From Schmidtea polychroa (taxonomy: Eukaryota): a stretch of 64,000 nt of DNA. The notes under the pieces were generated by a model. That model did not search any database and was not told the origin of the DNA. It saw only the letters and a list, made by a program, of their open reading frames with translations. The stretch's first letter is position 1, and the number at the start of each line of letters is the position of its first letter. Shown here piece by piece: positions 4,951-41,828 of this stretch. The stretch spans positions 131,502,001-131,566,000 of the forward strand of contig CM097886.1 in NCBI GenBank assembly GCA_044892525.1, read 5' to 3'. Both the position numbers and the translations under genes were made by a program.

Positions 4951-4980
4951 TACTGGATTCTGTCCAATCAGAATCCAGTA
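4951..4980 (-). promoter_or_regulatory. CCAAT box in the loop of a perfect 12-bp inverted repeat
   Basis: TACTGGATTCTG-TCCAAT-CAGAATCCAGTA, at the same relative position as CTGATTGG in E4, E5 and E6. Confidence 0.6.
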
Positions 4981-13338: not shown

Positions 13339-15394
13339 TGTTGGGCTGATTTCTAGACCCAAACTTCTAATTGTGACTGGAATGCGTAGGTACACAACAT
13401 GCAAAAAGCAAAAAGTATAGTTAAATATTAAAAAAATACACCAAATAAACAATAATAATTAAAAGAGAAACAACAAAAAAAAGGTAAACACAGAAATTAA
13501 ATAAAATTATACAAAAGCAAGAAGTTACGCAAAATCTAACTCAAAAATAACCAAATAAACATAGAGTTACAAAAAACAAACTCGAATAACTTAAAAGATG
13601 GTAAAAACAGCAAAAATTTCCAGAAAAACCCAGAACATTCCATAAAAATGGCGATGACCATCATAAAAGCTACCTTAAACAACAAAATTTAGAAAAATAA
13701 ATAAATTAGTAATAAAAATAAAAAATCTTAAAAAGAAATTCATAAAACATCAATTAAAATAAAAATTAAATTAAAAGTAATATAGAATGTTCTGGAACCG
13801 TTCCAAATCCATCATGGACGTAAAATTAACGAAAAATAATTAAAAAATAAAAACAAAAATTATGGCACAAAAATCGCCATTAAAAATATCAAAATTACAA
13901 AATAGAAAATTCTGGAATAAAAAGAATTCGATTTTGTTTTAATGCATCAATACATACACGTGTACAAAATAGGTATATATACCGACCCATTTTAGTCACA
14001 ATTTAATCTTTTTGTATGCCAAAAATTTTCGCAGCAAATTTAAACAACACCGAAAGTAAGGACTATTGTCTGTATATTTTATAATTGTTATCTTATTATT
14101 CTGTTTTATTATAGTGATTATTATAGTGATTATTATTGAATTATTCTTTTGCCTTTTTATTCTACTATTACGAAATCAGAGTGACCAGCATCGTCGTGGA
14201 CGGGTTATAGTCACGATGCTGATCAGCCTTGTTTCCAACTAATAGTCCACATGCACAAATTCGGGTCTACGACCCTACATGCACTAAAATTTCAATTTTT
14301 TTTTACCGGAGGTCGCCACGAACAAATGGTTTCTAACCAGGAGTAGGGCGGGTAAATCCATCCCGGTAGTTGGTATAGTCACAGGGACTATGCGGACGAA
14401 ATAAAATTTGGGAAAGTAATCGCGGGAAACATAATAAGGCCTATCGTACCGTATTCAGTTGAGTCGGAAAAGTAGGAAAATTTTAATTAATTCGACCTTT
14501 CGGTGAATGACATACCAAAAATAAACACTTAATTATTCTATAGGAAATATATCACTAGGAATATCTAAGCGGGAAATATCCCAGACTCAAATCATCACAA
14601 AGACTCTTGGTAGTCGGCTAATTGCACAAACTATTATTCAGTATGCCCAAAATTAACTACCCTTAATAGACTCTATTAATATTATTCACAATTTTATTCA
14701 ATCATAAATGTAATCTAGTTCACGTTCGATGGTATATTATTATAAACTAAAATCATTTCGTAAAATTTCCATACTTACCTTTATATGTATTGAAATTTAG
14801 CTTATATAAAATCTTTAAAGATTTTTTTTGTGTGTCCTAATAATACTATCATCTTTAGGATCATTATTATTACCATTATTACTTTTCTAAAAATTACATT
14901 AATAAAGTGTATATCATTACCATATCATATATAAGTTTCTTAATATATATTTAACTTACATTATGTTTAGAAAATGATAAATTATAAATTTTCTTAAATG
15001 ACCCGCCCCCGAAATATACATTCATTACCCATTGCACAAATATCCTAAATTAACTTATTTTAATATATATTTGGATTGTAGTGTTGGGCTGAATCGAAAA
15101 TTGGATTTTTTTGAAAAATCGTAAGGAAAGGAAGTAGAATATTAAGGAAAATAAAAATAAATAAACGAAACTAAGAATAAATTAGGATAAGACATAAGGA
15201 AAAAATAATAAGTAAGATATAGGAATAAAAATAACAATAAAAATAGGAAAAAGTAAATAAAACGATAAAATGACGATTAAATAATGCGGAATTTAATAAA
15301 TAATAAGGAAATTAAGGAAAAATAAAAAGAAAATATATTAAAAATAAGGAAAATAACCGAAAAAACAGAAAAAATATATTAAAATTTAAAAATA

Positions 15395-15445
15395 AGCGGT
15401 AATCAATTCTGATTGGTCCGCAGTTATAAGAAGTTACTATATAAG
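15395..15445 (+). promoter_or_regulatory. Putative Pol II promoter of E4 (inverted CCAAT plus TATA)
   Basis: AAGCGGTAATCAATTCTGATTGGTC then TATATAAG 22 nt later; same sequence and spacing at ~35982-36033 in E6. Confidence 0.6.
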
Positions 15446-15901
15446 CAGGCATCAAATTCAGAAAATTTAGTGTTAATCTAAAAACTATACAGGTAAATAA
15501 AACTGCAATATTACTGAGTGTTAATCTAAAAACTTTACAGGTACCCGACGATAGTGGACTAAAATTAACCCAAGCTTGACAGACGACTAACAGTGAGAAA
15601 ACTTAACTAAACAACGACCGAATTTCAGATCAGTGAGCCAATTCAAAACCGACGATTTCTATTTTTCGATTCAGTCTAATTAGATAACTCAACAGTAAGG
15701 AGATTCTATTTTGGTTTTAATTATATTACGAATAATGGTATTCATGAATATATAATTTAAATTTTAAAGTTAATCTCCTTCATTTGATCCGTAATTTTGG
15801 TTAAATGTTTATAGGTATTTTATTCATAATAAATGATTTACGATAGAGTTTTTATGATGCTATTTTATTATTATTATTTTTGCTTACATGATTGTAACAT
15901 C

Positions 15902-16050
15902 TATGAGTAACGTGGTGTTGAGACACTCCGTGTCATGATATGAGGTGCCTTCGGGAGCTTTGCCGGTGGACTTGGAGTGCTTCAATCACGCAGTTGGATT
16001 GGGCCAGAATTTGAAGGCTTCTTCACGGGTCCAATCGCTGAAGGACTTAA
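15902..16050 (+). pseudogene. RWTWS-exon family (copy at 36445-36600)
   Basis: NVVLRH..CHDMRCLRELCRWTWSASITQL vs NVALRYPCHGVRCPRELSRWTWSFSITQL; several differences are synonymous in this frame. Confidence 0.5.
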
Positions 16051-17329
16051 AATTAAATCGAGATAGTGGAAAGCAAGCAGGAGTTTCTAAATTCGAGAAA
16101 GAAGAAAGTATGCGCTTCACAATGTCTGAGCATGTCAAAGAAATCTTCGTTTCCATAATGACTTCATAACCTTCGTCTCCGAATGATATAATGACATCGT
16201 CCATCTGTATCTTATAAAGGCCACTATTAGAATCTTTCCTAGTTTCGTAATTCGTTTTTGAATTTAACAACAAATTCGGCTTTAAAATAATTGATTTTAA
16301 CGGTAGAACCATCACAATAAGAATTTAACCTCACCAAAAGTTTAACGGATAACAAACGATATATTTACAAATTTCATATACAGAAAATTAATTTCGAACC
16401 ATCTGCAGATGAACCGGCTTAAGGGTTTCTTCGGTTACCGTCCGAACTAAGCATCATCGGCCAGCCAAGAATGGTAGAGACATCTAACTGACTTTAATAA
16501 ATTCCAACTAGAGCGAGAGGTTGTTTTCAATTTTCCATGATTGGGTAGACATGTGCAGAAATCCAGTTTAAAATTCCAAATCAAAATTTTCTACGAGACA
16601 AATACACGCACGATGTACAACGAACTAGATAACAATTCTAGTGAAAAATTCCATATGGGGATGAGCAACAATGATAACGCTGATTAGAGAAGCGTAGTCC
16701 GGTGAGAGATTTTCAGATGTCACCCTCGTTTAATCAATTTACTGCAACACCGAGGGGTATCAGTTGAGTCAGCTATGTCCGATCTCGACTACAGTTTTCG
16801 TCCAGTAGATAATGAGTAGTTACCAGCAGGTAGATAACAATCATCAAACTAATATTAATCATAGATAATCTCTGGTGGGTAATTACACATGTAGATGTAG
16901 AGATAATTACGAACCTACCGAAGTTATATTTGGGATCAAAAATTAAATATACTGAATAAGTTTTGTTGTAAAATCAAATAATTCGTTTTCCATATAATGA
17001 TTATGAGAATAGTAACTGCGTTTTGTCAAGGGTAGCCTAACTTTAGTTTTAGAGAATGAAAATTTATAAATAATTATATATAAACATTTAATTTGGTTGT
17101 TTTCAACACTACGGCATTGTTTTGGCAGATAAAGATTTATTTTACCAATTTGATTTTCTTGTAAATGATCCAGTCAGCTAGGGTGAATACTGATTCATCT
17201 TGTCATTCAATTCGGTTGATTTTCTTTTGTTGTAATGAAATCTGGTACTACCAATAATCGGGGTAGTGAAATAATGATTTAACGAATTTAGTTCATCTCT
17301 CTTATGCCGTTTTCTTTTTCTTTTATAGA

Positions 17330-17484
17330 TATCCGAGGTGATTCCAAATACAAGATCCATACCTAAACCTTGCTTGTCCTGCTCCGATAAGAACGTAGTG
17401 ATCAAGGATCTTCAAGCGCAGATAGGGCGCTATAAGAAAAGGATAGATGAGCTGGAGGGTACCTGGTTTACCCCACTCAAATGA
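17330..17484 (+). pseudogene. EGTWF-family N-terminal fragment
   Basis: PKPCLSCSDKNVVIKDLQAQIGRYKKRIDELEGTWFTP. Confidence 0.8.
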
Positions 17485-18798
17485 CCCTACCCTCCAATAA
17501 AATTTCAGGAAACTACTGAAATCTATTTTTAGTAACAACCCCCCGGAAAACGACGTTATGATCAATAATTTAAATTTAAGTTATGTATTTATATTTGGAC
17601 ATGCGTATATGTCCGTGTGTGCACATGTGTCTGCCCATGTTAATAACAGCCTCATTGAGACATAGTTGTCTCCCAGATCATCGGAGGATGAAACACTCTA
17701 GTTCATTTATCTACCCAAGAAAAATAAAATTATGCCGAAGTTACCTTAGAAAACTGAATTATTTGCTTAGGATTATTTAAAAATTAAAAACTCAAAAGTT
17801 GAGCTGAATTTATTAACCAAAATAACAAAGTGAAATGGAAAACGACATAGATAAATAGAAATACAAATTTGAATCACATCGGAGGCTCGCTTCGTGAGAA
17901 TTATCTGACCAATTACTCCCATCACTGTAAGTTCACGAGAACAACTGAAAAATCTCTGAATATCCTCGAGTGTAAATAGTGAACTTAAAATTCCAGGGTG
18001 TAGACCCGAAATCTGAAATAATTATCAATTCCCAGCTAAACACCTCACGAATTGAGTGTGTCGGCATATTTTGGCAGTAGTATCTCGAATCCAGTATTTA
18101 CGATGTCATGTTTAAAGTGAAGCATTGGGAGACCCGTCCCTGAAACCAGACGAATTAAAAATCAAAATTTAACTTACCCGTCAAGCATCAGTTGAAGAGA
18201 GAGCCACTTACAACCACTATGGTCAGGGACTCGCAAAGAGCTGAATATAAATTCAGACAATTTACAATACCCGCTTCCCATAGTGGATCCTAGTAGCACG
18301 ATTTTTGTCGAAATTATCGACAGAGAATTTTTGAAAAGTTAATTTATGAAAACGAATATTTAAATTAATATAAATGGAAACTAATATTTAAATTAATATA
18401 ACTTAGTATAAACTAATAAAATAAATCTTTAAACGATTTAAACAATCGGTATTGGAAGTTTAATTTATAAAAGTTAAATCACCCATTCTTACTGTACCAA
18501 CTATTCATTCATCTGACTTAAAGTTATTGATTCCCAGGTTAAACCTACGAACTGCAATTTCGTAACTGGTACGTAAAACCTTGGATTTCGTAATTCTCAA
18601 GCCAACTTAAATTAAATTGAAAAAGAAATCGAAAGGGGAGATTAATTAGCACTTTAGGTCCATTTTCTCTACCTAAAATATCGTTGAAATGCGGATCGCG
18701 TTGATCTTAAAGGTAACGTTATATTAAACGTCTTGGAGTAACCGAACGTAAATGGAAGAACAAGGATTCGTTTTAATATCTCTTTTATCATTGCAGCC

Positions 18799-19287
18799 AT
18801 GCCCAACACTGAGCCAAGGAAAGTACAAGAAGGTCACTCGTCAACCGATTGGAGCCTCGGAAGTATCGACGAGGAGGCAGACGAAGCCGTCCGATTGAGG
18901 GAGGAAGCAGAAATCGCCCGGCTAAGGTCTAGATGGATCTGGTATAAGATTCATGATTGGACCTACCAGAATGTGGTCCCGGTGTAGCCGTATATCAACT
19001 ATACTTCATTGGCTTTGAGCGACGCATTCGACGATGTGAAGGAGGCGGTGGACCGGTTGCATCGGCTCGAAATATCAGTCCTGGCCGGCGAGCTGGAAGA
19101 CGTCGACGCCTACGCCCGAGCCCAATGCCATCCAAAGCGGACCGCAGCTCTTCGCAGTGGGCTGAAATACCCAAGAAGTCCTCGACGGAGACAGGAACAG
19201 CTGAGAAAACGCGGACGGCCACGAAAAACCGCCAGCTCAGCCAAGGAGATTACCGAACTGAAAACTAGCGCTGCACGACACACCTAA
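18799..19287 (+). pseudogene. AT-hook-family protein with one in-frame stop
   Basis: ORFs 18799-18987 and 19009-19287 share a frame; RSRWIWYKIHDW...LRKRGRPRK. Confidence 0.75.
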
Positions 19288-19712
19288 CATCTGTATTGTG
19301 ACTAAAGTCTTGTGATAAAAATAATTATCATGTAATGACTCGGTTATTAATGTACCTTGCGATATTGTGTACTGGGTTAGATAACTTTGACCCAGAGTTA
19401 AAATAATATTCGTTATGTCTTAGTAGTTTGTATTAATTTAAATGCTTGGTTGAGTTTTGGTTGTCGATATTAATTTAATTGTGTGTATTGCTTGATTCTT
19501 GGTAATGTTCTTAGCATTGACTATTACTATTATCGACTACAATTTTCCGTAACATTGACAGCCCGATAGGGTTTGGTAATATTCATAGAACTCGGTTTGG
19601 GTGCGCGTAGAGGAGGGCTGCGACGAGGAGATTACATTCATTTAGTATTGATGGTCATAATAACGCTCGACACTCGATGCTGATGTGAAACTCACTAATG
19701 TTATCTTGTTTT

Positions 19713-20175
19713 AGTGCTAAAACTCCTGGAAGAGATGCGAGCAGATAGAGAGTGGGCGCAACAACAGGCAGAGGAATACCGGGCCAAGCTAACATGAGTC
19801 AAGGCCCATTGTCGGAACTTCGAATGTACCTGGTTTCCGCCAGCAGAGATTAAAAAACCGATGAAGCTGATCACTCAACTGCAACTCCAGAGTGCACAGG
19901 ATCAGGTTGAGTTACGGGCCCTCGGCCTGAGAGTGAAGGAGCTGGAGATCAAGGTACACCAACATGACCTTGATCGGGAGGTCATTTCCAAGATCCGACC
20001 CATGAGTGAGCTGCTCCACAAACCGAAAGAAAGCACCCCACCAATAATTCGGAGGAAGAAGATCCGGCCGGGTAAAGCGGCGCGGGCGAGAATAAGACAA
20101 GCCAGCCAGGCCCAATTAACGCTCCATTCTGCTGGGTCAGAGTCTACTCCAAAAGAATCGACTAGGACATTATAA
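19713..20175 (+). pseudogene. Divergent EGTWF-family exon
   Basis: After a TTTTAG acceptor: LKLLEEMRADRE...*...FECTWFPPAEIKK...VHQHDLDREVISKIRPM; homologous to 34600-34975 (-). Confidence 0.65.
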
Positions 20176-20544
20176 GTTGATCATGTTTTCCAAATAAATT
20201 TTTACTAGTACATCCATGTCTGGCATTTTGATTTTCTCATAACGTTGATTGTTACCACGGGGATGAAAAGAAACCGGACATAGGCTTTCTATCGGCAGTC
20301 CGTGAACCCCAGTGGGTACTAGACAACTATAGTATGTTAAGCATGCTCACTTTTTGCTAGTGCCCAAACCCTTGATACAGTAACAACGTTGATTGCTCAA
20401 CGGGTATCAAGTGGTCAGCTATAAATTATATTCTGGGTTACGCTGGAAACAGCATGAGGTAAAGATTTTGCAGTACCTGTAACCCACCACTTGTTACAGT
20501 ATTATTAATATCACACTAATTATTTTAGTACACGCTATAATTAA

Positions 20545-22442
20545 CCCTCCAGAGGGCGCGTTGGGTCTCACAGACCCATACGATCTTTTTTTGTGTAAAA
20601 AAATTTTTTGTGGCGTAGCATCAGAACATTCTGTAGCTGATTCATTTCAGCTTTACTTTAATTTCGGCCAAAATCATTAATACATGGCAACCGTTTATAA
20701 GAGATATTGTAATCTGGGTCTGTCGGACCCAATGCGCGCATTTTTGTTCTAAATGTGTATAGCTATCCCTTGAGATTATTTACCTCTCATCTGTTCATTA
20801 TCATTAGAACTCGCGCTCACAACATTATTACGGAACCAACTGGCGTGAAGGGCTCTGCCAAACATGCTAAATCTCCAAAGGATTGTTGGAGCTGTATTTT
20901 TGATGAAAGTATCATGAATATTTTAGAGGAATGCACGAATATATATAAATAAAAATAAGGCAAGCTGTTCAAGAGATAGAGATACAAAAAACACTTCAAA
21001 AGAAGAAGTGTCCGCTTTGATTGGACTACTTTACCTCGCTGCGGTACACAAGAGTGGAAGACAAAATTTGGAAGATCTGTGGGAGCAAGATGGAACAGGT
21101 GTTGATATATTTCATAATACTATGTCATTACGACGATTCAAATTCCTTCTCCAGTGCATCAGGTTCGACGACAAAACGACAAGAAGTGAAAAGCTGAAGA
21201 GTGACAAACTAGCCCCAATCAGAGAGATATTTCAAATATTTGTAAATAACTGTCAGAATTCTTATTCTATTTCCGAATATGCCACCGTTGATGAAACGTT
21301 AGCTGGTTTTCGAGGACGATGCAGTTTTCGACAATATATTCCATCTAAACCTGATAAATATGGGATCAAGCTTTTTGCTTTAGTGGATGCGCAACCGGAA
21401 CGCAACCGGATGGACCCTATAAAGTTAGTAATAGTCCTGGTGATGTTGTTGAACGGGTGTGCAGTAGTATACTCGGAACAGGGAGAAACATAACCTTGGA
21501 TAACTGGTTTACTAGCTATGATTTATCTAAAAGAACAATTGTTGGCACTTTGAGGAAGAACAAAAGACAAATTCCTCCTGAATTCCTGAACCTTCGAGGC
21601 AGAGAAAAAAAACAAGTTTGTTTGGCTTTGAGGATAACTGCCCTTTAGTCTCTTATATTCCTAAAAAGAAGAATGTTTTGGTACTTTCTACACTTCACAA
21701 TAATGACAAGATTGACGAGGAGACAGGAGACGCTCGTAAGCCAGAAATAATAACTTTCTACAACGATACAAAAGGAGGAGTGGGCACTGTAGATCAAATG
21801 TCATCCCTTTACAATTGTGCTAGAAACACCAGACGATGGCCGGTGGTCATATTTTATCGCTTACTAAACATCGCAGGTGTCAATGGGTTTATTATTTATT
21901 GCAAAAATGGAAATAAACCAATGCAAAGACGAACATTTCTGAAGAAATTGTGTCTAGAATTAGTTGACGATCACGTCAAGAAAAGATCCAGTATCGTAAC
22001 CTTGCCAAAGCAACTGCGACAGAAATTGTCCAAAGTAAAAACACAGAAGTACAAAATGAGGCCCCCTCAGTTGGCAAACGAGGGCGCTGTCATAAATGCC
22101 AGGGTAGAGACAGAAAGACTAAATACTTCTGTACCACGTGCCACAAGTATTTGTGTTTAAAACACGCTAAATTTATTTGCGAACAGTGTCTTTCTGATGA
22201 TCAATAGCTTGCTTCACAGTATGCAGTTTCTTTTGTGCAATGACTAATTCTTTCCTATGTTTTTTCATAAATTGTTGAATATTTTGAATGTAAAAGCGTG
22301 TTTATAAAGTAATAAATCTTTTAAAATTTAATATTGCTCTATTTTGCCAATCAATAAGTCTATAAATCATGAGAAAACAATATTGGGTCTGTGAGACCCA
22401 ACGCGCGCATCCATGTAATTTTTTAGCGCGCGCTCTGCAGGG
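20545..22442 (+). mobile_element. piggyBac element with both ends, deleted and non-autonomous
   Basis: TTAA at 20541-20544 and 22443-22446; terminal IR CCCT(C/G)CAGAG(G/C)GCGCG; perfect 22-bp subterminal IR CGCGTTGGGTCTCACAGACCCA with asymmetric spacers. Confidence 0.95.
20780..22205 (+). pseudogene. piggyBac (PGBD4-like) transposase with frameshifts
   Basis: TVDETLAGFRGRCSFRQYIPSKPDKYGIK, ITLDNWFTS, YNDTKGGVGTVDQM, RRWPVVIFY, and a C-terminal Cys-rich domain. Confidence 0.95.
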
Positions 22443-22699
22443 TTAAAGAATTAACGAAGTATATTGACATAAATGTTATAATATAAATGAAAATTGATGA
22501 CGTAATCGACGATCTGCGTAAATGTTAAAATATTACGCAATCGAAAACTAAAGCAAAAAAAAAGTAGGGGGTACCTAGATCTGGAGTGCACAATACCACA
22601 TACTATTGATTGCGATGAGATAATTATAAAGTTTGCAAAAAGAAAAGCAAGAAAAAACATTATTTAAACATTGTCATAATTAAGAAATATTTATTATAT

Positions 22700-22886
22700 T
22701 GTTGGGCTAAACTTCGAGTGTCGAAAAATCGGGCTAAGAACGAATAAATAGGATAAAACAAATTTTCAATAAAATCGCGAGAAATATAAGAATAACTAAA
22801 TCAGATAACAATAAAAGAAATAAGAATATAAAAGAAATAAGAATATAAAAGAAATAAGAATATAAAAGAAATAAAAATAACTAATA
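22700..22886 (+). repeat. Direct repeat of 25938-26103
   Basis: Identical apart from the copy number of an internal 17-bp AAAAGAAATAAGAATAT unit. Confidence 0.95.
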
Positions 22887-23042
22887 TTATATAATAGTGT
22901 AGAAAAACCCCAAATCTACTAAAGGTAAACTTAAGCGTAAAACTCCTAAAACAACTCCTATAACGAATTGTAAAAATAAATAAATAATAAAACAGATATA
23001 AGCGTACAACGTTGAGTTAATGATATCGTTATTCAGACAAAG

Positions 23043-24069
23043 ATGACTCAAGATCAAACGGAAGCCCCAAATAACGAAATAAACATCAGTAGAATACATA
23101 GAGAAAGATGGGCCAAAGTGATGACACAATTATCAAATCAAACACGAAATTACCTCGAAGAAGCGAGAGAATGGGAAAACCACCAGTTCCAGTGGTTAGT
23201 ACAGAATTTACGGGCGGAGGCGGAGGCCGAGGCCTGCAAAAGAGCCGCCAAATGGTCGGCATTAGAAAGTACCAGGCAAGAGGCACACGGGCATTACCTG
23301 AAGCAGCTGGTACAGGAGTCAAGAAAAAGACTAACGGATGAGAATAAGAAGCGGGAAATAGAAAAACAAAAGGAGGAAAGAAAGACCCGCCAACTATTAG
23401 CAGAAGCCAGAAAGTGGAAAAAACAACATCGACAAATCCAAAAAGAGATGAGAGAATTGCCGCAGAGATTGGAACACGAGAGTGATCAAGGGAAATGGGA
23501 AGAAAACCTGGATCAGAAAGAAGAGCTAAGAAGGCTCCGGAAAGTAGCAGCTAGAAGTCAAACCTGGCAGACCAAGGCCATGGAATTTGAAAGGCATCTG
23601 GCCATGAAACTGTCTATAAAGGAACAGGAGAATGATCCTGCAACAGTCAGGTAGAATCGTCGAACTCGTAAATAAGGTGGCAGACCTTGAAAGAGACAAT
23701 AACGGCTATAAGGGGGCACTAGAACAGAGGAATATAGTGCTAGCCGGTAAGAACAAGAAGTTGGAGAACGAGAGAAAGATGTATGACGAAAATATCAAGA
23801 ACCTCGAAAAGGAGATCAAAAAATGGGAAAACGGCGAAAAAGCGGAAGAGTTAGAAAAACAGATCGAGGTAAGGGACGACGAAACCAGGTATCTAACATA
23901 CCTGTTGGACGAGGAACTCAATGTGTCAAGAGCGCTAAGAGACGAAGTTCAGGAGCTCAGAGCGCAGATTCCCCGCTACTACATCCCATTCGATCCCATC
24001 GCAATCCAACTACAAACGTCAATAGAAAGCGATGAAGGGTATGTAGGTCAGGAAGAGACCTTTGTATAA
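23043..24069 (+). CDS. Uncharacterised coiled-coil protein, probably one gene split by a frameshift (23043-23654 and 23632-24069)
   Basis: E/K/R/Q-rich helical sequence with spaced Trp; the two ORFs overlap by 23 nt. Confidence 0.6.
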
Positions 24070-24243
24070 AGATAAATAGAAAAGATAAAAAATATAAAAA
24101 TCGGGACCTGTATCCCAACAAAAAAATTAATAGTACGATAAAAATATTTACGGGACTGTAACCCCAATTATATAATTACATATAGATGTATACGTATAAG
24201 CCGCACTATAGCGCAATTATTAATTATGTATATATTATAGAAA

Positions 24244-24963
24244 ATGAACACTGAAAACGGACGACCTATCATAACATCTATAATCGAGCTAGAAGAGGGA
24301 GAAATTGAAGTAGAAGTGGAGAGGAAGAAAACTATCAAGGAAGAATTACAAGAGGAGAGACAAGAAAACGAAAGATTAGTGGAAAGATGGAGAGATAATC
24401 GAAAAATGATTAAAGTATTGAAAAAAGAATATACCTTGTTAGAAGAAGTAAAGAAAGAGGTAGAGGAGGAAAATGAATGGCTTCACGATCAAAGAAAACG
24501 AGGGAGAAATTGGGAGAAGATCGCGGAAGAATTATGGCAGGAAAGAGCCAGTCTCAAGGCAAACGAAGTGATCGAAGATTACTGGAAGATGGAAGCGAGG
24601 AAACGACAGGAAACTATCAGGGAACTAGAACACCAACTGGAAGTAAAAGTACAGGAAAACGCAGAAATGGAAAAATGGAACAATAAATATCGAGAAATAG
24701 AAACAAAACGGCAGAAACAAAACTCAAAGACAAACGACCCAGAGGAAAATGATTTCCTACAATTGGAACTGGAACGGAACCTGAAAGAAAAGAAGAAGGA
24801 GATAAAAGCCTTGAAAAGAGAGATAAGACACTTGACAGACAAGGTCCAGGAGAAAGAGAGACAACTAGAAATGTTGCCGGAACCCCGACATAGAGTCATT
24901 AAAGCGGAGTCTAAATTAATGCGAATCCGAGAGAAAAACCCAAAAAAGAAACGACAAAATTAA
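24244..24963 (+). CDS. Uncharacterised coiled-coil protein, 239 aa, intact
   Basis: ATG start, heptad-rich, basic C-terminus, TATA-like intergenic region upstream. Confidence 0.7.
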   Translation: MNTENGRPIITSIIELEEGEIEVEVERKKTIKEELQEERQENERLVERWRDNRKMIKVLKKEYTLLEEVKKEVEEENEWLHDQRKRGRNWEKIAEELWQERASLKANEVIEDYWKMEARKRQETIRELEHQLEVKVQENAEMEKWNNKYREIETKRQKQNSKTNDPEENDFLQLELERNLKEKKKEIKALKREIRHLTDKVQEKERQLEMLPEPRHRVIKAESKLMRIREKNPKKKRQN

Positions 24964-25007
24964 AACCGACAAAAAGCGATGTATATAAATGTGTATAAAA
25001 TTACTAA

Positions 25008-25682
25008 ATGTATATCAGTAGTATGAGAAACAAACCGATCATAATAATCCTGATGATGACGATAGTCCTTGATCTGACAAGGCGACAACCCGTAAAGCCC
25101 GAAATTGAACATATTCGAGACAGCAGAAAATCCCACCAAAAGACCGAACCAACAGCCAAATCATGCATCTATCCAAGTATCATAAAAACCCGTCTTACCG
25201 ACAATATTCGAGCTACCCGAACGTACGTCAACAATATCAGATTAATGTGTAATAACCACCCCATGTGCAAAATTATTGATAAAAGAATCCTGGACCAAAT
25301 TCACCAACTCGATCAGCTAGAACAACAGGTCCAACATCAAGAAATATAAAACCCAGTCGAACCAGTAGAAATCGCCAAAGAAATAAATGACCACCATGAA
25401 CTCCTCTACGTGGTAATCGTCGAAACCACCGTAATCATGGTAATCATCCTCCTAAAAATCCATAATATCTACCAAGTTTGGAAGAAAAGTCACCCCGTAA
25501 CGGAAAGATCGTCTCGAAGATCCCAAGAAGCTAATATGGCTGACGTAATCCAAGAAAATCTCCGACAACGAACCTCCATCGCAGAAACAGTCAGACCGTC
25601 CACAAGTCGCCGAATATACTACAACATCGAAACCCAACAACCAAATCACCCATCATCAACGGCAACTGATCAACAAACATAA
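25008..25682 (+). pseudogene. Small type I membrane protein in env position, one in-frame TAA at 25347-25349
   Basis: ORFs 25008-25349 and 25410-25682 share a frame with no other stop; hydrophobic N-terminus IIIILMMTIVL, heptads, TM-like LLYVVIVETTVIMVIILL, cytoplasmic tail. Confidence 0.6.
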
Positions 25683-25907
25683 CATTTCGAACTGTAACTA
25701 TTGACAAAATTTTTGCTGTTTTATTATCTTCTGATGAAACCGGTCACCTTAAGTGGCCACTGCTTGCTTATATTTGTCATTTTCTCTGTTTAATTAAAGT
25801 ATTTTTTTTGTTTAATTTGATTTTCTGTTTGGGTGGATTTTGATTGAGATTATGGGTTATACCGAAAGAAGGTATGATCCAAATGTATGATATTATGTGA
25901 ATTGAGG

Positions 25908-25937
25908 GACGCAATTTTAACGGGCCCCGGAGTGATT
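25908..25937 (+). promoter_or_regulatory. Possible non-canonical polypurine-tract region
   Basis: TGAGGGACGCAATTTTAACGGGCCCCGGAGTGATT directly before TGTTGGG; resembles Ty3/gypsy pre-3'-LTR motifs but is not purely purine. Confidence 0.35.
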
Positions 25938-28834
25938 TGTTGGGCTAAACTTCGAGTGTCGAAAAATCGGGCTAAGAACGAATAAATAGGATAAAACAAA
26001 TTTTCAATAAAATCGCGAGAAATATAAGAATAACTAAATCAGATAACAATAAAAGAAATAAGAATATAAAATAAGAATATAAAAGAAATAAAAATAACTA
26101 ATAAAACAATAGAATGCATAAGGCGAAATAAGGGGAAATTACCCAACACACATGGTAGGAAAAGGAAAAAACATAAAATAACCAAAACGTAAGAAATAAA
26201 CGAGAAATTTAAGAAAATAAAATAGAAATCCTCAAATAAATGTATAGGCGAATTAAAACAAAAATTATATTATGATAAAATGACAATAAACGCGCAGGAA
26301 AAACGGGAGGAAAATAATAAAAAAAATACTAAAATAAATAAAATATTAATACAAATAGGAAAAGTTATTAAAACCCAACACATTACAATAAAAACACCTA
26401 AATAATAATAAATAAAAAATATCACAAACAAGGCGCGTCCTGATTGGACGAAGAATAATATATAACTAAAGAGAAAAATCTGTGGAGTACCACTTTTAAT
26501 CGCTACTCTACAGGTAAAAAATTTTTTTATGTTGACCACTTTTAATCGCTACTCTACAGCATCTTGAACACCATTTTGACTACGATTCAACGAAAACAAA
26601 ATCGACTACCAGTATCTAGCGGAACCAAAAGGAAAACGATTTAGTAGAATCCTGAACATTTACCATTTTTTGACACTCTCGAAGGATATTATTTGGTAAG
26701 TATGGTAATTGATTTAAATACTTTTTATGATGATGATATTAAATACTTCTATGAGTTTGATATTGAATAAATTCTTTTAGTATAATAAATGTTTAATTTT
26801 CGAAAGATGTTCCTCTCTCTATATGGTGCTGGCGACGATGTCGTCTGGGAATCCAATATGATGCGGGAAAATCAAATAAATCCGTAGAAGAAGCCACGAG
26901 GATGGCGACTAGAAGTGACATTGAAAATCGGGATGAAGCTAGATTTATAGCAATAGAGATGATTGAACGATTGTGATTACTGTGGGACGGCATCATATTC
27001 GAGACTCAGACGGCGTGGTCGCCAGACAAGTAAATTTTATTATAACGATTAATTTTCATAAAACCATGCCATTTATTTAATCATATTTATTATAAAAAAT
27101 CTTCTGAAAGTGACGAATCGAGGAGATCGAATCGTCCTTCCTGGCGGTCTAAGGACGGTGGCAGCGATGATTGCCGTCCTTAGGTGGGTCAGGAGGGGTG
27201 AGGACATCAGGCGGACGATATTAATACTGCACGGGGGATTCTTCCACCGAGAGACGTCTGTGTTCGGCATAGAAAATACTGTTTTTGGAGAAGATGAGGC
27301 AAATAAAAAATCCACAGAGATTCGCCGGAGAAATTCGAAATACAATTCTTTAAAATTAGGTATAATCCTAGTTTAATAAGTCCAGGTTCGACATCGTTAC
27401 GTCTTAAGTCCCCGAGTTACAGTGGGCTGAACACGAAGGGATCATAGTCTTCGGTTGCAAACAGAAAATTCCAACGTGATTAGTGTAAACTGTCACCAAG
27501 CTTTTCGGTAGGGATTTGGATCGCTAAGGAGTTAACGACAAAATCCATCATCGGTGCACTTTTAAGTTGAATTGTTGATTCTTAGGCTATAGATAAGGAT
27601 TGTTTTTCTGAAAATAGAGTAAATAAATCCTGAGAAATTATCAGAACACTTACGATAGATGCGAGGGAAGCCGTTGTCGAAGTTATCAGATAACTGCCAA
27701 ATGAATTTCAGTCTGATTATACCCAACCGAATTAGATGACTAAAGGGAATCTGAACAGTGAGAGAGAGCGATAACCGTCATCACCATAGATACAGTGAGA
27801 GCGTTGACAGACGGATATCTTAAGTCGACCACGATAGTAGATAAATTATCAGCTCCAATTCTCCAGTGATTTGTCGCGTAATGGGTAAGGCTGACACGCA
27901 TAACGAATCAGGTAGAGATTTCTAAGAGTCCGGATCTTGATAATACATGCCTACCAGCACGTCATATGGAATTCCCTCTCAGTATGCCGCCAACCAATCC
28001 ACATAAAAAGAAAATTTGTTCGGTGACCTAATCATTACATAATAATGACGAAGTTAAACGAGATAGTAGCATTGCGTGTAGGGACGACAAGGGAGATCGT
28101 ATCCCCGTAAATAATTTTGCTAGGAGTATCAGACAGCCACTCTCGAAACATAATCCGAACCAGACACACCAAGACATAGTGGTCAACAGAATAGTAGAAA
28201 TTGACAATACACAAGCATGCATTGCAACACATCATATTCAGCACTCAAGTAAATGACAGTATTTAGTCACAACCACATCCTGTGTTAGAGTCGTCATGAC
28301 AACCTCACGGCAAAAATTTGAACTAAATAAAATTTTCAATTCACGTTCAAAGTTCAAATAAATATATATATTATGATTCCCTTTTCAATTTCGATCAATA
28401 TTAAAATAATGCAAAGAAGCAGGGCCGAAATTTTTGTTATTTACACAAACTTAACTTCATAGAACTTAGTAATGAGGAGTAGACTTATCAATATTGGACA
28501 ATAAGAAATATATTAATGGTGTTAAAGGTTATAGTACTCGAACGATGGAACATATGAAGGGGGGGTCAAGCCCGTAAAATTATACCGAGTGATGAAACTA
28601 TAATAAATGAATTCTGTCTAAAATTCCCGTTTTCCTCTCATAAAATTGTAAGGAACGAGTGAGTTAACTTGAATGTTTGAGTTTGAATGAATGCGAGTAT
28701 CGATCAACGACACGGGTGTGTAGATCACTATTGAATAGTTTGATTTGGAAACTTGTAAACCTCATATGCGAAATGCAAATAACGTTCCAGAGAAACTTTT
28801 ACGATAGACAATAAATTTTTCTTTTAATCTTTAG

Positions 28835-29593
28835 ATGAATACCTCGACCAGCTCTGGAAAAATTCCTCGTCCTTGTTTCTCCTGCGCCGATAAAAATGCA
28901 GATATCGCGCAGCTCCATCTATACATCGGGGCTCTAAAGAAGAGAATTGACCTCTATGAGGGTACGTGGTTCTCCCCGCCACAAATGAAGGAGGAGCGAA
29001 AGAAGATACTCCGGTTGGAACATTGCAGGGATAGCCTGCTGGAGGAGAGCCATTGTCAACGGCTAACCATTAAAGCGCAATCCGAAGCCCTCCACAAGGT
29101 CTATACGGAGGCAGAATTGGCCAAAAGGGTTCGAGAATTTCCCGTCTCAGACAGTACTAATGTGTTTCCCCCGCACCACCAGTCGTCGCAAGCATCTACA
29201 TCAAATTGCCAAGGGCACGGCTCGTATCTGCCGCCAATTCCAGCTCCAGTATTATCCGGTTATCGGCCCTTAGCAGGTGGTTCTTCCGACCCGATCTTAG
29301 CTCCAGTGTTGGTGGCGCCCTCCGCCGCATCCGATGCGAATCATCCGGCGCCTTCTCGTAAAAGGAAACGGCCAACTAGGGCTGCCAAGAATTAAAAACG
29401 CAGAGACGCGATAGCCGCATTGGAAGCTTCATTATCAGTGGCCCAGTCCACCCTTAAAGAGATTTCAAGTTCCCACGTGATTCCGGCCAAAGAAATATTT
29501 CGAATCGTGCCGGCCGATGGCATCAAATATCTCGCAGACCGTCGCTTGCCGGTGGATATCGACGAAGTATTCGCCGACGGAGAGGTTTTTTAA
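28835..29593 (+). pseudogene. EGTWF-family protein, ~252 codons, one in-frame TAA at 29393-29395
   Basis: RPCFSCADKN...YEGTWFSPPQMKE...RKRKRPTRAAKN*KRR...DIDEVFADGEVF. Confidence 0.8.
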
Positions 29594-29888
29594 CAACTAG
29601 AGGTGACTACGGTGTTGGTCTACCGGGAAGAATGTTTTCGCGACCTCCTCTCTAGTGTATGACAAATTCTCATTTTCCTTAGTGATCGTGTATTTGATTC
29701 TTGTGCAACCTTTGTTATTATATAAATTAATGTATGTCGTATGATTAATATAAGTTTTTTGATAATTAATGAGTTATTTTACGAGAACGATGAGCGGAAT
29801 ACCCGATTCGATTGGTGAACTGAATGTATGACATTTGCGTGAAGGTCGTCCTTTTGGACCAGGGTCGACCCGAGAATGAATGAGTATG

Positions 29889-29990
29889 GGTAAGTCCTTC
29901 TAAGGCACCTTAGAACCTGTACCGCGAGTGGGTTAAGAGTAGTCCTAAGGCAGGGGCTCACCTGTTAAACTACTCCAACCCGTGTGAGCA
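29889..29990 (+). other. Conserved structured segment near the right end of the elements
   Basis: TTCTAAG-GCAC-CTTAGAA hairpin; GAGTAGT/ACTACTC stem enclosing GCAGG-GGCTCA-CCTGT; homologues at 39361-39450, 3050-3127 (-), 20283, 33040 and 1898. Confidence 0.55.
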
Positions 29991-30216
29991 GCACCAACGT
30001 GGGAACACCGCCACGGGCTCACATGAGGGAATATTAATAAGGTCATGTGATGTATGTTGGGTAAATCTGAGACCGATGTATGGGATTGCATGTCCGACTA
30101 CGAAAATATTTCTTCTCCCCTTCATACACCAACAATATATAAATACAATTCTATGATTTTTACGTTTTTATTTCTGATTGTTTCTCTGACACAATTATTA
30201 AATTTATTATAATTAT

Positions 30217-30801
30217 TAGCGGTGCACCGAAAAATCTAATTTATTTTTTCGGTTTCAAAATTTCGAAAAATTTGTTTTCCTTTTAATTTCACTCCAGTTA
30301 TTTCCCTCGTGAATAGTTCGAATTCAAAAAAACAGAGTGCGGTTTGGAATTATTTTGATGTCGATGAAATAGATCCAAATTTATAAACATAATATATTTG
30401 ATCCAGCAAATTTTAATTTAGATTTAATTTTAAAAAAATGATTAAACATTGAAAAAACTTGAATTGAATTAAAAAATGAAAAAAAATTCAAATATTAGAT
30501 AATTTTGATTCTCCTATTGAGATTGCATAAATTCTTATTTAGCTTTTGAATCCGAGATAAATAATTATTTATTTGAAAGCTTATCCCCAAAAGATAAAGA
30601 TATAATTAATTATAGTAAAATTAACGGGTTTTCTTTACTTTCGAGCGTTAAATTTGAACTTTTTTTTGAGTTGTGCAGGAGATGTAATAACTGATCATAT
30701 AGCTAAAATTATATTACAAGTAGTTTAAAAAAATTATTATGTTATTTACCGAAAATTTTCGGTTTCTGCCGAAATAAAAAATTCATTTCGGTGGAACCCT
30801 A
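30217..30801 (+). mobile_element. Non-autonomous hAT derivative
   Basis: Ends TAGCGGTGCACCGAA / TTCGGTGGAACCCTA; 8-bp flanks ATAATTAT and AAAATTAT; BED-finger remnant SAVWNYFD. Confidence 0.7.
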
Positions 30802-35600: not shown

Positions 35601-37039
35601 TCCCATTTTTTGTATTTTTATAAAAGTACATACATAGTATACATTTTTTAAGTAATAATAATGTTGGGCTGAGTCGGAAAATTAATTTTGGAAATTAGGA
35701 AAGTAAAATAAGCAGGGTGCGAAGAAAATAAAAATAAAATAAACAAATTTACGAATAAAATAGAATAAGATATAAGAAAAACAATAATTAGAAAATAAGA
35801 ATTAAAACAAAAAATATAAAAATAAGAAAAATTAAAATAGGACAATAGAATGACGGAAAATAACGTAAAATGCAGTAAATAATAAGGAAATTAAAGAAAA
35901 TAAATAGAAAATATAATAAAAATAAAGAAAATAGGAAGAAATAACTAAAAAACAAGAAAAATAAATTAAAGCAACAAAATTAAGCGGTACTCAATTCTGA
36001 TTGGTCTTCACACATAAAAAATTATTATATAAGCAAACACAAAAATTATTAACTTACAGTTAATCCAAAAACTTTACAGGCATTACTAGCGACTTATAGA
36101 TCACTCAAGAAAATTAGTAGCAGCAGAATTTCCAGGATTCGAAATCGAAAACAAATTAGCCTTCAGAAAACGACCGACCGAATTTTTGACTCAGCCTCAA
36201 CATCGATATTAGTGGTAAGGATAACTTTTATGTGGAATTTGTCTTTTAAGTTAATGATAATCATGAAGTTAATTTATAATTAAAATTTTGTTCTGTAACA
36301 CATGGCTTTTCATTTGATCCCATAATTTTAATGTTTGTATATTTAGATGTTTATTTGGTTGAATATCGTTAACATTAATAAATAATTTCATTCAGAGTTT
36401 TATACTTTATTCAGTAACTACCATTTTATGAAATTTTATTTGTTGAGAAACGTGGCGTTGAGATACCCCATGTCATGGTGTGAGGTGCCCTCGGGAGCTC
36501 AGCAGGTGGACATGGAGTTTTTCAATCACGCAGCTGATTCGGGCCGAAGTGTGGGGGCTTCCTCACGGGTCCGTCGCTGAAGATGCGACTAAAATATATG
36601 AATAATACTCTAGAAAGATAGCAGCTATAAAGTGATTGAAGGAGTAGTCGTATGGGTCCAGTGAAATGCAGAAAATTTTGTTGGAGAGTTCGCACAGTGA
36701 TTGAGGGTGTCACGCTACCGAATCATAGGATCATCTTTACCAAACTTAGATTGTCTCCATCATCTGAAAGATCTATGCAAGAGTTTCTGAAATTCGTCTG
36801 AACATTATTATTGTCATATGGGGCGTATCATCTGTGTTCATAATTACACTCAAAATTGTTCCTGAAATTTTCTGTCTCCAGACCTTCGTAACTGCTATTT
36901 TCATCGTCTATATCCCTCGCGTACACTCAACTTTGATACGTTTTCATAAAGAAAAATAAATAGTTTTAAAAATAAAAACACGAAATACTATCGAATCTAA
37001 TCTAGAAAAATTTATTTCCAAAACAATCCAGCATGATGT

Positions 37040-37483
37040 TCAGTTAGCACATCGAATACAAAATGCCTGCAGTAAATGGTGCAAGATGAGATGTAGCTGA
37101 TACGATAGACCATCCAAAGGAGAAAAATCCAAATCTTGAGTGTGGCATAAAGAGTGGTAGAATATCCGCATTTTGTCGAGTTGTCTTCCAGCGATAGTTG
37201 AGATATTTAATAAATTTCCAAGCCGATGTTGATGGTTTGCGCCCGTTGACGATGATAGAAATCCACGATGAGAGTTTACATCAGCCGAGATTGTAGTTTC
37301 CGTAAATAGGCATACAGTGAGAATCGTGCGACATGTGGAATATTTGTGAAACTGGCATATACCAAACTCATTAGATAATGTAGCGACATTCAAGTCTGAG
37401 AGTAGAGCAAACACACGAGAGTTCGCATGACAAATACACACAGCACACGGATGTGCATGCATTGTAGCTACGATCGGTAACAT
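37040..37483 (-). pseudogene. 5' part of the antisense gene of E6
   Basis: 147-aa ORF starting with Cys/His-rich HPCAVCICH; SDDG motif downstream at 36756-36767. Confidence 0.4.
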
Positions 37484-38331
37484 TCATATGAGAGAGATAA
37501 GGTAATTCTCACGTAAATATCCATAGTAGTGAACTTTACCATATGCTATGCCGATGGAGATTTTCATCTCTGTGAGACAATAACGGATAAGTGTGTTAGG
37601 ATAGCAGCTGACCTGAGGCCACTACACTCAAGTGGTCATTTCTCCTATATCACTGTGATAAAAATTTGTTTATGTTATTATAGAAATAAACTGTATAATC
37701 AGTAACCGATGATCTGAGGTACGAAAACTCTCAAAGTTCACTTATTGGAAAATCGCCAATTAAATATTTGAATAATTAGAATAATTTGAAATTGGGCTTT
37801 ATAGATAACACTGACAATCTTGTTCAATGGGCGTTATAGATAATCATATAAATTTTAGATTAATTGTGATAATTAATCTATCGAAATTTTTATTAAATAT
37901 TATTATATGATTATTATTATAGTATTATTAAATATTACCGACCCTCAGACCGTCAAGTATAGGAATTGTCGAGTGGGGAAAAGGGGAAAGAGTTTTTGGG
38001 GAGGTAACTAGCGCCGATATCGTGCAATTGTTGATCTAAAATGAAATCCGGTATTCGTAGAAAATTCTTGGAGTTAGTAAATGTGCCCCATCGAAAAATC
38101 TTCCGGTTAATTCATTTTGCATTCGACAAGTCAATGGGATTTATCAATAACTAAATTTTGTAAATAATGTACGGGGTAGAAACGAGTTGTCGTCTGGGGG
38201 GAAAAATTCCCTTACCCACGTAATCTGCTCTTCTTTTTCTGTTGAACATCTAAGCTAGTAACTGAGTAGTTGTACCAAATGTATGACATTTCGAACATCA
38301 TATCTTAATCTCATCTTTATAGCTATCCAAC

Positions 38332-39081
38332 ATGATGCCAAATGCCAAGCCCGTTTTACGTCCTTGCTTCTCTTGTTCAGACAAGAATGCAATAATCAAG
38401 GACCTACAGACCCAGATTGGACGGTATAAAAAGAAAATAGACGAGTTGGAGGGGACATGGTTTAGTCCCGCCCAGATGAAAGAGACCCAGAAAAAGTTAT
38501 ATCGAAGCGAACATTGTCGTGACGCTCTGATCTCCGAGAGTCGTGCACAAAGGAGTTTAATAAAGGAGCAATCCGAGGCCCTTCATAAACTATATCTCCA
38601 AGCAGCAACCACCCGGAAAATCGCAAAAATCCCTATCAACGAAGCCGATAATCTTTTTCCAGTGCACCACGATACCTCTGCCAGGTCTTCATCTCCGTTC
38701 AAGAAGTCTTGCCGTGAGTGCGTGGAGACCGAGCTCTCTCCTCGATGTCCAGATCTTATCTTCCCCGGGACTAGTAAAGCACAGCCAAACACCGCGTCTT
38801 CATCTGCCGTATCACGAATTACTTCAGTAGTTTCAAAACCTAAACGTCGACAGCTGTCGCGTACCGAACGCAAACGGAAACAATGAGAGCGGGCATCCAT
38901 CAAAAAAAGCACACCCTCGACCGTCACCCCTGTCAACAGCAACAGCAATCCCACCGTGGTCGATCTGACGACCGGGATCCCAGGGCGAGTCATCTCCGCC
39001 ACCGGGGTAACATGGGAGGAAAATGCCTCCGAATTCTTTGATTTAGACGAATTATTCGCTGACACTGAGTGGGAAAAATGA
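38332..39081 (+). pseudogene. EGTWF-family protein, ~249 codons, one in-frame TGA at 38884-38886
   Basis: RPCFSCSDKN...LEGTWFSPAQMKE...KRRQLSRTERKRKQ*...WEENASEFFDLDELFAD. Confidence 0.8.
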
Positions 39082-39676
39082 GACCTCCCCGGAAGAGCAT
39101 TCCTGGCGATTTGAAAATGGGGAGTCATATCATCACTGTTCTTATATTTTTCTTTACTCTATCGCAGTATATTTATGTGTACAAAGTTTCTGTGTTCAGT
39201 GTCATAATATTACAATAAATGTTTTGTGGTTCTTATACGTTTTCTCTAAATAAGGAGGTTGGTATAGCATAGTAGATACACCTGCAAGTTTCCCGATTCG
39301 ACAAACATCACTCGGTTTGCATTCAAGGAAACTCCAGTGGGAGGTTCGATCGTGTGATTAGACGTAAGTCCTTCTATCGGCAGTCGTGAGAGGAAAGTCG
39401 AGGCTTCAGTAAGGAGTAGTCCTAAGGCAGGGGCTCACCTGCTTACTGGTGTCTCGCCGACATAGTGCAGTTCCAAAGTGAAGAAATTCACGGGTGCTAT
39501 GTTGGAGGGCAGGTTGTGCGGGGTTCTGCTCATGGTTGACAAGGAAGTAGTCATTATACGCGAATGAGCAATCATCCCTTAGAGAAGGAGCTAAGTCCAT
39601 AAGAGCCAACCAGGTAGTACCCCAGCATAATTTTTGGGGGCGCAGCGGGATATTATTGAAATTTCTGTTTATCGAT

Positions 39677-40891
39677 TAGTGTTTCCAAACGAATGATCGA
39701 GTAACCGAGTACTCGTCTATTTTCAGATATTTTCCATTATTCGGTTAACCCAGTAATTTCGTCGAGTAACCGAGTAGTTACTTTAGATATAATTTTTTTT
39801 TCAAGCATAAAATATCAGAAATTATGATATTGGTTGCTATAGTAACATTCAATATTTTCTATTTTTCTTAACTAAGCAAGCAAAATTATAAGAATTAAAT
39901 ATTAAAAATACTATTTTTCTTAACTGTAAGATTTTTTTTCTAGTTTAAGAAATTGTATTTAATTCAGTGAAATATTTTACACTTTTACGCGTTCATCACA
40001 GAACACAGATTTTTAAAATTAATAAACTCAGTTAATCGTGCTTTGGTCGAGCTAGGGGTAGCGCCTTGTAAAAATGATAATATTGAATTGTTAAAAGAAA
40101 TTGTTTCAATTTTAGAACCGGCAAAAATAGCTGTTTTGGAATTGAGTAAACAAAATTCTAATTTATTGACTGGAGACGCAACATTACTATATGTGTTTCA
40201 AGAATTAGAATTGATTAAAACTCTGCTCGCGACAGAATTCTTGTTTAATTTAAAATCTCGAATTGAAAAACGTCGAAATAAAGAATTGATTACTCTATTA
40301 TCACTTCTACACCACGGCGTGTATCCAGAAAATAACAAATTTTTTGAATATTCAACTAAACATAAAGTTAAAAGATTTGCAACAAAAATAATGAACCGTT
40401 TATTTCCCAACCATTCTGAAAGTTCAGGCACTAATGAAGATGAGGAGCCTGAGTTGCTAAACCCATACAAGAAATAACAAAAGTGTATTTCTTCGTTTAC
40501 AACACCTAAACACCAAAATACCCGAAATTTAAGTTTGGAAAAAGAATGTAAGCTACTTGAAGTAAATAAAGGTAAACGTTCTGAACAACTTGAGAAATTG
40601 TACAATGCACTATTGACAATAAAGCCAACTTCTACAGCCTCCGAACGAGTCTTCTCAGTAGCTGGCACTTTGAAGACGAAAATCCGAAACAGAATGAACC
40701 CAGAAACCTTAAATGCGCTAATTTTCCTTAAATATTATTTCTTAAATAAATAAAAAGTTATATATACAATAAATATTTGATATATTTAATAAAATTTAAT
40801 TAAATTCTTTAATTATTTATCTTTAATTATTTAATTTTAGTGTCGAGTATAATAACCGAGTAACCGAGTACTCGCTCAATTAGAAACTTCA
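39677..40891 (+). mobile_element. Internally deleted ZBED-type hAT
   Basis: Subterminal CGAGTAACCGAGTA repeats at both ends; imperfect TIR; transposase C-terminus inside; no TSD seen. Confidence 0.8.
40043..40753 (+). pseudogene. hAT transposase C-terminal third with dimerisation domain
   Basis: LLTIKPTSTASERVFSVAG...RNRMNPETLNALIFLK; two ORFs in one frame separated by a stop. Confidence 0.9.
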
Positions 40892-41429: not shown

Positions 41430-41828
41430 TCAGATATTTCTTGTCAAATAAGTTTGTGTGAAGTAGCATTTCAACTTGCGGGGCCTCCCCCTCTTTCGTG
41501 GAGTTAACTCGGCTTCTTCGAGATCCTCCAGGGGAATCCCCTCTCTCTTGGCCCGAAGTTGCAGTTCTAGTTTCCTCAGCCGGATCTGAGCGGCTTCCAC
41601 ATCCCAGGCCACTTGATCTCGGGCCTCCTGCAGCCGGTTATTCTCCGGCTCCACATTCACCCACGCCGGGGCATCTACTTTGGGGCCCGTCCGGATTACT
41701 CTATCTGCGCAATCCAGGTCCCGTCCCTGACCCCACCGATGTATATGGTACCAGATGTACCGGGTCCGGAGTCGGGTGATCGTCTGCTGGTCAGTACCCT
41801 CGTCACTGCTAGAGCTGGATTGAGACAT
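41430..41828 (-). CDS. AT-hook-family protein, intact, 132 aa
   Basis: MSQSSSSSDE...RYIWYHIHRW...EAAQIRLR...PRKRGRPRK; ATTACAG acceptor 2 nt before the ATG. Confidence 0.75.
   Translation of the reverse strand: MSQSSSSSDEGTDQQTITRLRTRYIWYHIHRWGQGRDLDCADRVIRTGPKVDAPAWVNVEPENNRLQEARDQVAWDVEAAQIRLRKLELQLRAKREGIPLEDLEEAELTPRKRGRPRKLKCYFTQTYLTRNI

Follow-up and report, generated by a model that had tools for sequence, protein, structure and literature searches.

A stretch of 64,000 nucleotides from Schmidtea polychroa (GenBank assembly GCA_044892525.1, contig CM097886.1, positions 131,502,001 to 131,566,000 of the forward strand) was analyzed and is referred to here as the window. The unit at positions 22700-30134 of this window is quite probably the remnant of one integrated copy of a Ty3/gypsy-type retroelement with giant long terminal repeats (LTRs), from which an internal part has been deleted. 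It is one insertion with a 4-bp duplication, its site is empty in another sample, and its left repeat is a piece of the U3 part of the LTR. The deleted copy itself is ordinary. What is new is a spliced gene encoded within the LTR, together with a 3' cassette that has apparently one promoter per gene. Nothing points more strongly to a “complex” element than this spliced and conserved open reading frame (ORF) inside the LTR, ORF F, which an earlier reading made from the letters alone (the sequence-only reading) did not name. The positions of the features are given in Table 1.

The unit begins with TGTTGG and finishes with CCAACA, so that TG...CA termini stand next to a short duplication. It possesses two direct terminal repeats, the left of which is truncated. 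Positions 22700-22886 (187 nt) align to 25938-26103 (166 nt) with no substitutions and one 21-nt gap in an A-rich tandem run (blastn E 1.8e-73). The sequence-only reading had reported that the first 187 bp recur almost identically at 25938 and that one ATAT duplication brackets the whole 7.4 kb. Both are borne out, with the right copy corrected to 166 nt. The ATAT word alone is weak because two random local 4-mers match with P 0.012 in this AT-rich setting, and hence it was checked in public sequencing runs (X1, X4, X5, and X7 below). Record 18 of X5, a contig of 420 nt, joins 22567-22695 directly to 30135-30423 with one ATAT, which is the empty site. Thus, both ends, the 4-bp duplication, and the polymorphism of the insertion are confirmed. 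Record 11 of X4 covers the left junction (22561-22712) with no differences. A joint from 22662 to 30462 with 25 letters between, found in X4 and X5, is unexplained and may come from repeats.

The left repeat ends about 315 bases short of the LTR promoter. It contains no promoter, no R/U5, and no primer site. In the standard scheme of reverse transcription, a repeat without these parts cannot be copied. The left repeat must therefore be the residue of a full LTR. It appears that a full element integrated and that a single deletion then took away what followed in the 5' LTR, along with the primer site and the core genes; what survived would be the 3' cassette, with the plus-strand primer region and the 3' LTR behind it. 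The remaining copy can no longer be reverse-transcribed. An intact member of the family would most likely transcribe, from its LTR promoter, a spliced RNA in which F is the first ORF. The 3' genes, which would encode coiled-coil proteins and a single membrane protein, most likely have TATA promoters of their own.

The 3' LTR measures 4197 bp; its relatives have 3966 and 2506 bp. Over its final 250 bases it can be aligned to the end of the unit at 5395-2890 with a local score of 51, where the best of 200 shuffles scored 15. The LTR has an A-rich start, followed by a reversed CCAAT box at 26440 (LTR position 503) and a TATA box at 26459 (LTR position 522). The reversed-CCAAT word CTGATTGG is found again in four other window units, at a matching place in each, and the units at 15082 and 35662 also have the TATA box at equal spacing. 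A related LTR of 3966 bp, ending in CCCCAGCA, makes up the unit at 35662-39627. The word TGGGGGC lies at 39635, 7 nt past the end of that unit, and occurs twice in the window. It is likened to the site of Cer1 and not to a host tRNA; the accessible part of the source reports TGGGGGC as the start of the tRNA-Pro primer site of Cer1 (PMC3315495).

The window holds three forms of the family: a solo LTR, an LTR with a primer-like site, and a cassette with a 3' LTR. Solo LTRs of the same superfamily are present on the minus strand at 2890-5395 and 45143-47666, with a TTAT duplication, and the 4.4-kb block that holds the solo LTR is present twice (1945-6314 and 44189-48581, 98.4% identity). The primer-like site of the 35662 unit is followed by a hAT remnant (Pfam 1e-9, 40478-40750). 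Alternatively, this unit could be taken for a solo LTR that has an ATAA duplication and lacks its last base. An ORF type near 18750-19290, within a composite LTR-like unit at 15082-20540, resembles 41430-41855 on the minus strand by eye.

The gene inside the LTR is preceded by a long intron. In X1 and X4, with one contig each, 26693 is joined to 28834 with one differing letter between, for a net loss of 2139 nt. The 2139-nt LTR intron is thus supported by sequence data from the runs. Should X1 and X4 be DNA, the joined form would represent an LTR copy without the intron, and splicing would still be implied. X5 has no cover at 27846-28179 and was not used as evidence. The spliced leader before ORF F contains no earlier ATG. 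Upstream of the long intron, a candidate 25-nt exon begins 30 nt after the TATA box, which would be the transcription start, and a 46-nt GT-AG mini-intron follows it. A similar layout of exon, intron, and exon copy can be seen by eye at about 15476-15540.

ORF F possesses a CxxC motif, a helix-turn-long helix, and a basic stretch. It has a stop at 29393-29395 with 65 open codons after it. With ORF G (38332, in the 35662 unit) it shares 54% identity over 114 aa, and both F and G run past a stop into acidic-hydrophobic tails that are similar to each other. Between F and G, the synonymous measure (pS) is 0.81 and the nonsynonymous measure (pN) is 0.33. Because pS exceeds pN, F has been kept as a protein by purifying selection. 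In the predicted structure of F, a turn connects a helix to a second, long helix, and disorder follows. The composite unit at 15082-20540 also holds two F-type frames, a short one at 17338 and one at 19798 that is more distant (profile E 0.014).

A profile built from four pieces of the window found 15 relatives of F among 1.84 billion representatives. In nine of the 15, there are 8-11 R/K in the 15 residues downstream of the core; F and G likewise have basic stretches. The relatives (P0002-P0016) are public gene models in which the F-like block stands beside unrelated domains, and 13 of them have other Pfam matches. These fusions are probably LTR exons taken into gene predictions. F itself is without a Pfam family, and its best score against the atlas was 0.87, with no family. 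The best match among sequences of solved structures had E 0.28, and the F profile found no locus in metagenome and viral contigs. F would be a small nuclear regulator with a putative dimerising helix, a basic stretch for RNA binding or nuclear import, and an acidic tail.

The 3' end of the LTR carries other conserved features. A donor-like GTAAG word is common to five units, about 240 nt before the LTR end. A 25-nt core near the LTR end occurs in four places, where none is expected. At 29929-30030 and 39401-39504 the hairpin has a fixed inner core and outer arms that differ but are paired, and a second hairpin follows. Folding relative to shuffles gave z of -2.2 here, -3.9 in the 35662 unit, and -0.5 in the 5395 unit, in which the fold is absent. 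These hairpins are a candidate packaging or dimerisation signal. A search of Rfam returned no family for them (one match at E 0.13, far below the cut-off), and a search of metagenomes with the LTR-end motif found no locus.

Between the left repeat and the 3' LTR lies the cassette, which is corrected here to four ORF blocks, A, B, C, and D/E. The sequence-only reading had given each gene its own TATA-like spacer. Boxes were found for A (TATAAGC at 22997, where ~23005 had been given), C (TATAAGC at 24195), and D/E (TATAAA at 24984), lying 46, 49, and 39 nt before the respective ATGs, and this part of the claim holds; ORF B has no box at that spacing. There are 10 occurrences of TATAAGC on the plus strand of the window, and four of these are the TATA boxes of two related LTRs and the boxes of A and C. 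In shuffled spacers, TATAAGC at the given distance has P ~0.002 per spacer and plain TATAAR has P ~0.07, the distance range having been chosen afterwards.

It is also conceivable, though unlikely, that the cassette genes have no promoters of their own and are spliced from the donor-like word close to where the 5' LTR ends. In favor of this, the GTAAG word is kept in the five units, and the ATGs of A, C, and D are each preceded, 3-6 nt upstream, by an AG. Against it, the LTR acceptors have a pyrimidine tract that these AGs do not. The pyrimidine fraction of the candidate acceptors is 0.45-0.55, compared with 0.70-0.90 in five LTR acceptors, two of whose windows were off by one base. TATAAGC also sits at matching spacing upstream of A and C, and none of the 15 joints listed of 94 falls at a cassette ATG. 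Internal TATA promoters therefore fit the cassette genes better than splice acceptors do.

The predicted products of the cassette can be described from composition. In D/E, a hydrophobic N-terminal stretch is accompanied by three Cys, a single membrane segment (residues 128-146), and a basic patch and tail, with hydropathy values of 3.4 and 2.46. D/E looks like a type I membrane protein in its predicted layout. Its single-sequence model (pLDDT 54) is uninformative, and no fold search was made from it. Loose ends occur at 23633 in three of four runs, which indicates that other copies differ at the overlap of A and B. Because the frames overlap and other copies differ there, a single gene that has been disrupted in this copy may account for both A and B. 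In ORF B, all four listed differences are synonymous. For ORF C, Pfam and NCBIfam gave only weak Rad50-type coiled-coil matches, far below the cut-off.

The join of the cassette to the LTR is seen elsewhere, since record 28 of X7 spans 25717-25945 in another copy. The region at the polypurine-tract position is widely shared among the runs. The summed contig depth in X1 is 12,830 at 25905 and about 670 in the bins at 24840-25507; depth does not give copy number. The region before the LTR folds no better than shuffles (z 0.05).

A number of results weigh against the interpretation of the unit as a deleted copy of a giant element with a regulatory gene. The empty site is one contig from one study. 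The spliced joint comes from two contigs of one study, whose kind, DNA or RNA, is unrecorded. Among the records listed from the public runs, none bridges the junction at 22886/22887. The sequence-only reading had proposed a provirus that lost most of its 5' LTR and gag-pol. Of this, a single integrase-type insertion, the remnant of a 5' LTR, the 3' cassette, and a complete 3' LTR are supported; the loss of gag-pol is conjectural, gag, reverse transcriptase, and integrase having no match in 52 further six-frame peptides and 12 ORFs of the window. That reading had also noted a polypurine-like motif before the second repeat. The motif is in the right position, but it is not a clean polypurine tract, having 8 purines in its last 15 nt and 11 in its last 20 nt.

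The protein searches add to this side. Pfam REV was matched in one of the 15 relatives of F, at 19.1 bits against a cut-off of 22, and the fold search with F returned nothing at E 0.001 or better (Rev of simian immunodeficiency virus, at rank 40 with E 0.23, was treated as chance). ORF A has no Pfam or NCBIfam family and a best atlas score of 0.75. Homologues were found among none of 35 candidates for ORF B and none of 187 near-length candidates for D/E, and none of 5170 longer candidates was significant for ORF C. These blanks are weak because the searches depend on shared words or large clusters. Lastly, the listing of differences between this copy and the run contigs covers 40 of 420, and 18 of those listed lie in cassette frames. 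Eight of the 18 are synonymous, against about 0.33 expected, and no clear selection can be seen.

Other explanations of the unit were considered. The first is a non-autonomous family with two giant LTRs and an accessory cassette but no gag-pol of its own, moved by a helper, in which this copy lost most of its 5' LTR and its primer site. The window has six units of the family, and no core gene lies near any of them. In X1, a cassette contig has a depth of 527.6, compared with 64-126 for the LTR-intron contigs and 16.8 for the flank, although depth is not copy number. The 35662 unit is cut right after its primer site by the hAT remnant, and therefore the absence of core genes there is uninformative. 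This explanation overlaps with the deleted-copy reading, since both need a truncated 5' LTR, and it is judged unlikely.

More improbable is that 22886/22887 is a misjoin of the assembly, the true locus being longer or a full-length element. The window does have two N gaps and the 98.4% duplicate block, and the junction lies in A-rich sequence with no listed contig bridging it. Both outer ends are confirmed as a single site, and past the junction the LTR continuation and the spacer share no sequence; nothing direct counts against a misjoin.

The sequence-only reading had allowed that a short left repeat might be the native design, and this can be largely dismissed. Ginger-like elements have TGT ends and 4-bp duplications, and the 6-bp inverted termini with a 4-bp duplication would fit integrase-type transposases too, but a self-propagating unit of such design, for example a Ginger-like cut-and-paste element, is very unlikely given that the repeat is direct and internal with only 6 bp inverted, that the related units are solo LTRs or bear a primer site, and that promoter, R/U5, and primer site are all missing from the remnant. 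A remnant of an integrated giant-LTR element remains the preferred reading.

The comparisons that follow draw on the accessible parts of the sources cited. The closest family is probably Burro/GYPSM1 of planarians. These are giant gypsy-like LTR elements of more than 30 kb in total, with up to 25 kb internal, and the Burro polyprotein holds Gag, protease, reverse transcriptase, integrase, an envelope-like part, BIR, BCL2, and MATH (PMC6431247). Multi-kb LTRs, accessory ORFs, and an AT-rich host are shared with the present unit. In contrast, the accessible description of Burro has no LTR-internal spliced gene and no 3' cassette with its own promoters (PMC6431247). Two further sources touch on Burro by mention only (PMC11410931, PMC13238120). 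The unit is not filed as a Burro member because the defining polyprotein region is absent from this copy.

GLT2 of Schmidtea mediterranea may offer another likeness. On the reverse strand of its probe there is an acceptor-like end and then a frame with MEQTWLRP, which resembles FECTWFPP in ORF H (19798) and EGTWFSPP in ORF F, all by eye and unscored (PMC8532177). Unlike the present unit, GLT2 is treated in that part of the source as an expressed transposon with little single-cell overlap with BURRO1, and no structure or protein is described there (PMC8532177). In the literature searched, no description was found of an LTR-internal gene or a 3' cassette in planarian giant elements; the original Burro paper, the Repbase entries, and one supplement of PMC8532177 lie outside that coverage and may have it.

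Cer1 of Caenorhabditis elegans belongs to the Ty3/gypsy elements and has a tRNA-Pro primer site; its CERV regulator, made from a spliced RNA, exports genomic RNA (PMC10309623). By analogy, CERV may be a model for a possible role of ORF F, although CERV shares exons with gag and lies outside the LTR (PMC10309623). Foamy viruses have an internal promoter for tas and bet, a promoter of 3' genes that is outside the LTR (PMC12789967), and Tor3b/4b of Oikopleura have an internal promoter for env (PMC4402516). They are likened here by layout and not by sequence. In each there is one internal promoter, whereas here there is apparently one box per gene and a candidate regulator in the LTR.

The MDG1 group of Drosophila has two small accessory ORFs, sORF1 and sORF2, one being nuclear and one a single-pass membrane protein with a basic patch (10.1101/2025.03.14.642691). 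Unlike the ORFs here, they lie upstream of gag, are unspliced, and have about 70-110 aa (10.1101/2025.03.14.642691). D/E shares with sORF2 and FAST proteins a single membrane segment followed by a basic patch. The ectodomain of those proteins is short and in many cases N-myristoylated. It differs from them in having 127 residues before the membrane segment, no MGxxxS/T, a 3' position, and an N-terminal hydrophobic stretch.

Table 1. Features of the unit at 22700-30134 and its immediate borders (window positions)
Feature	Position	Strand	Basis
Left target-site duplication, ATAT	22696..22699	+	Single copy in empty-site contig, X5 record 18
5' LTR remnant, TG end and first A-rich part of U3 only	22700..22886	+	Repeat of 25938-26103; stops before CCAAT/TATA
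Putative deletion junction and spacer with TATAAGC at 22997	22887..23042	+	Sequence
ORF A, 203 aa, charged, coiled-coil-like (E+K+R+Q 47%)	23043..23654	+	No Pfam/NCBIfam family
ORF B, 145 aa, coiled-coil-like, overlapping A in another frame	23632..24069	+	ORF list, composition
ORF C, 239 aa, coiled-coil-like (E+K+R+Q 52%), TATAAGC at 24195	24244..24963	+	ORF list, composition
ORF D/E, about 219 codons, frame broken by stop at 25347-25349	25023..25682	+	Read with X at the stop
Motif in polypurine-tract position abutting 3' LTR, purine tract interrupted	25904..25937	+	Sequence, run contigs
Full 3' LTR, 4197 bp, TGTTGG...CCAACA	25938..30134	+	3' end homologous to solo unit; empty site
LTR promoter, reversed CCAAT box and TATA box	26440..26467	+	Conserved across window units
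Candidate 25-nt exon, then 46-nt GT-AG mini-intron, tail repeating the exon	26489..26559	+	Sequence; candidate splice
Intron inside LTR, 2139 nt, GTAAGT...TTTAG	26696..28834	+	Joint in X1 and X4; ATG of ORF F directly after
ORF F, LTR-encoded	28835..29593	+	Similarity to ORF G, relatives, structure model
GTAAG word resembling a splice donor, with two hairpins as candidate packaging signal	29890..30030	+	Conserved word, fold
Right target-site duplication, ATAT	30135..30138	+	Sequence and empty site

Other mobile and repetitive sequences are present in the window. A piggyBac-type element lies between TTAA sites at 20545-22442, about 250 bp to the left of the unit, and its transposase is fragmented (Pfam 6e-27). 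Fragments of an Endonuclease VII and of a viral-type DNA polymerase B are found at 8335-9324. They are Polinton-like, and both are below the Pfam cut-off. A frame with a FLYWCH zinc finger (49102-49443, Pfam 3.6e-9) is probably from a DNA transposon. At 51825-55703 there is an array of units of about 510 bp with 90-96% identity.

The deleted copy shows parts of a giant-LTR family other than its core, namely a conserved spliced gene in the LTR and orphan 3' genes. The strong acceptor before F may explain why F-like blocks are fused to unrelated host domains in gene models. It is tentatively suggested, as a possibility that is more doubtful than probable, that the family has a circuit of the complex-retrovirus type, in which a Rev- or Tas-like regulator encoded in the LTR behind a 2-kb intron would control the export of genomic RNA or switch on the 3' genes with their own LTR-type TATA boxes. 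If so, even solo LTRs could make the regulator, and passage of the element between cells could be aided by the membrane protein. Should F prove to be a regulator, each of the many solo LTRs would act as an expression unit for a protein that works in trans, and this would bear on how the elements respond when PIWI silencing is lost.

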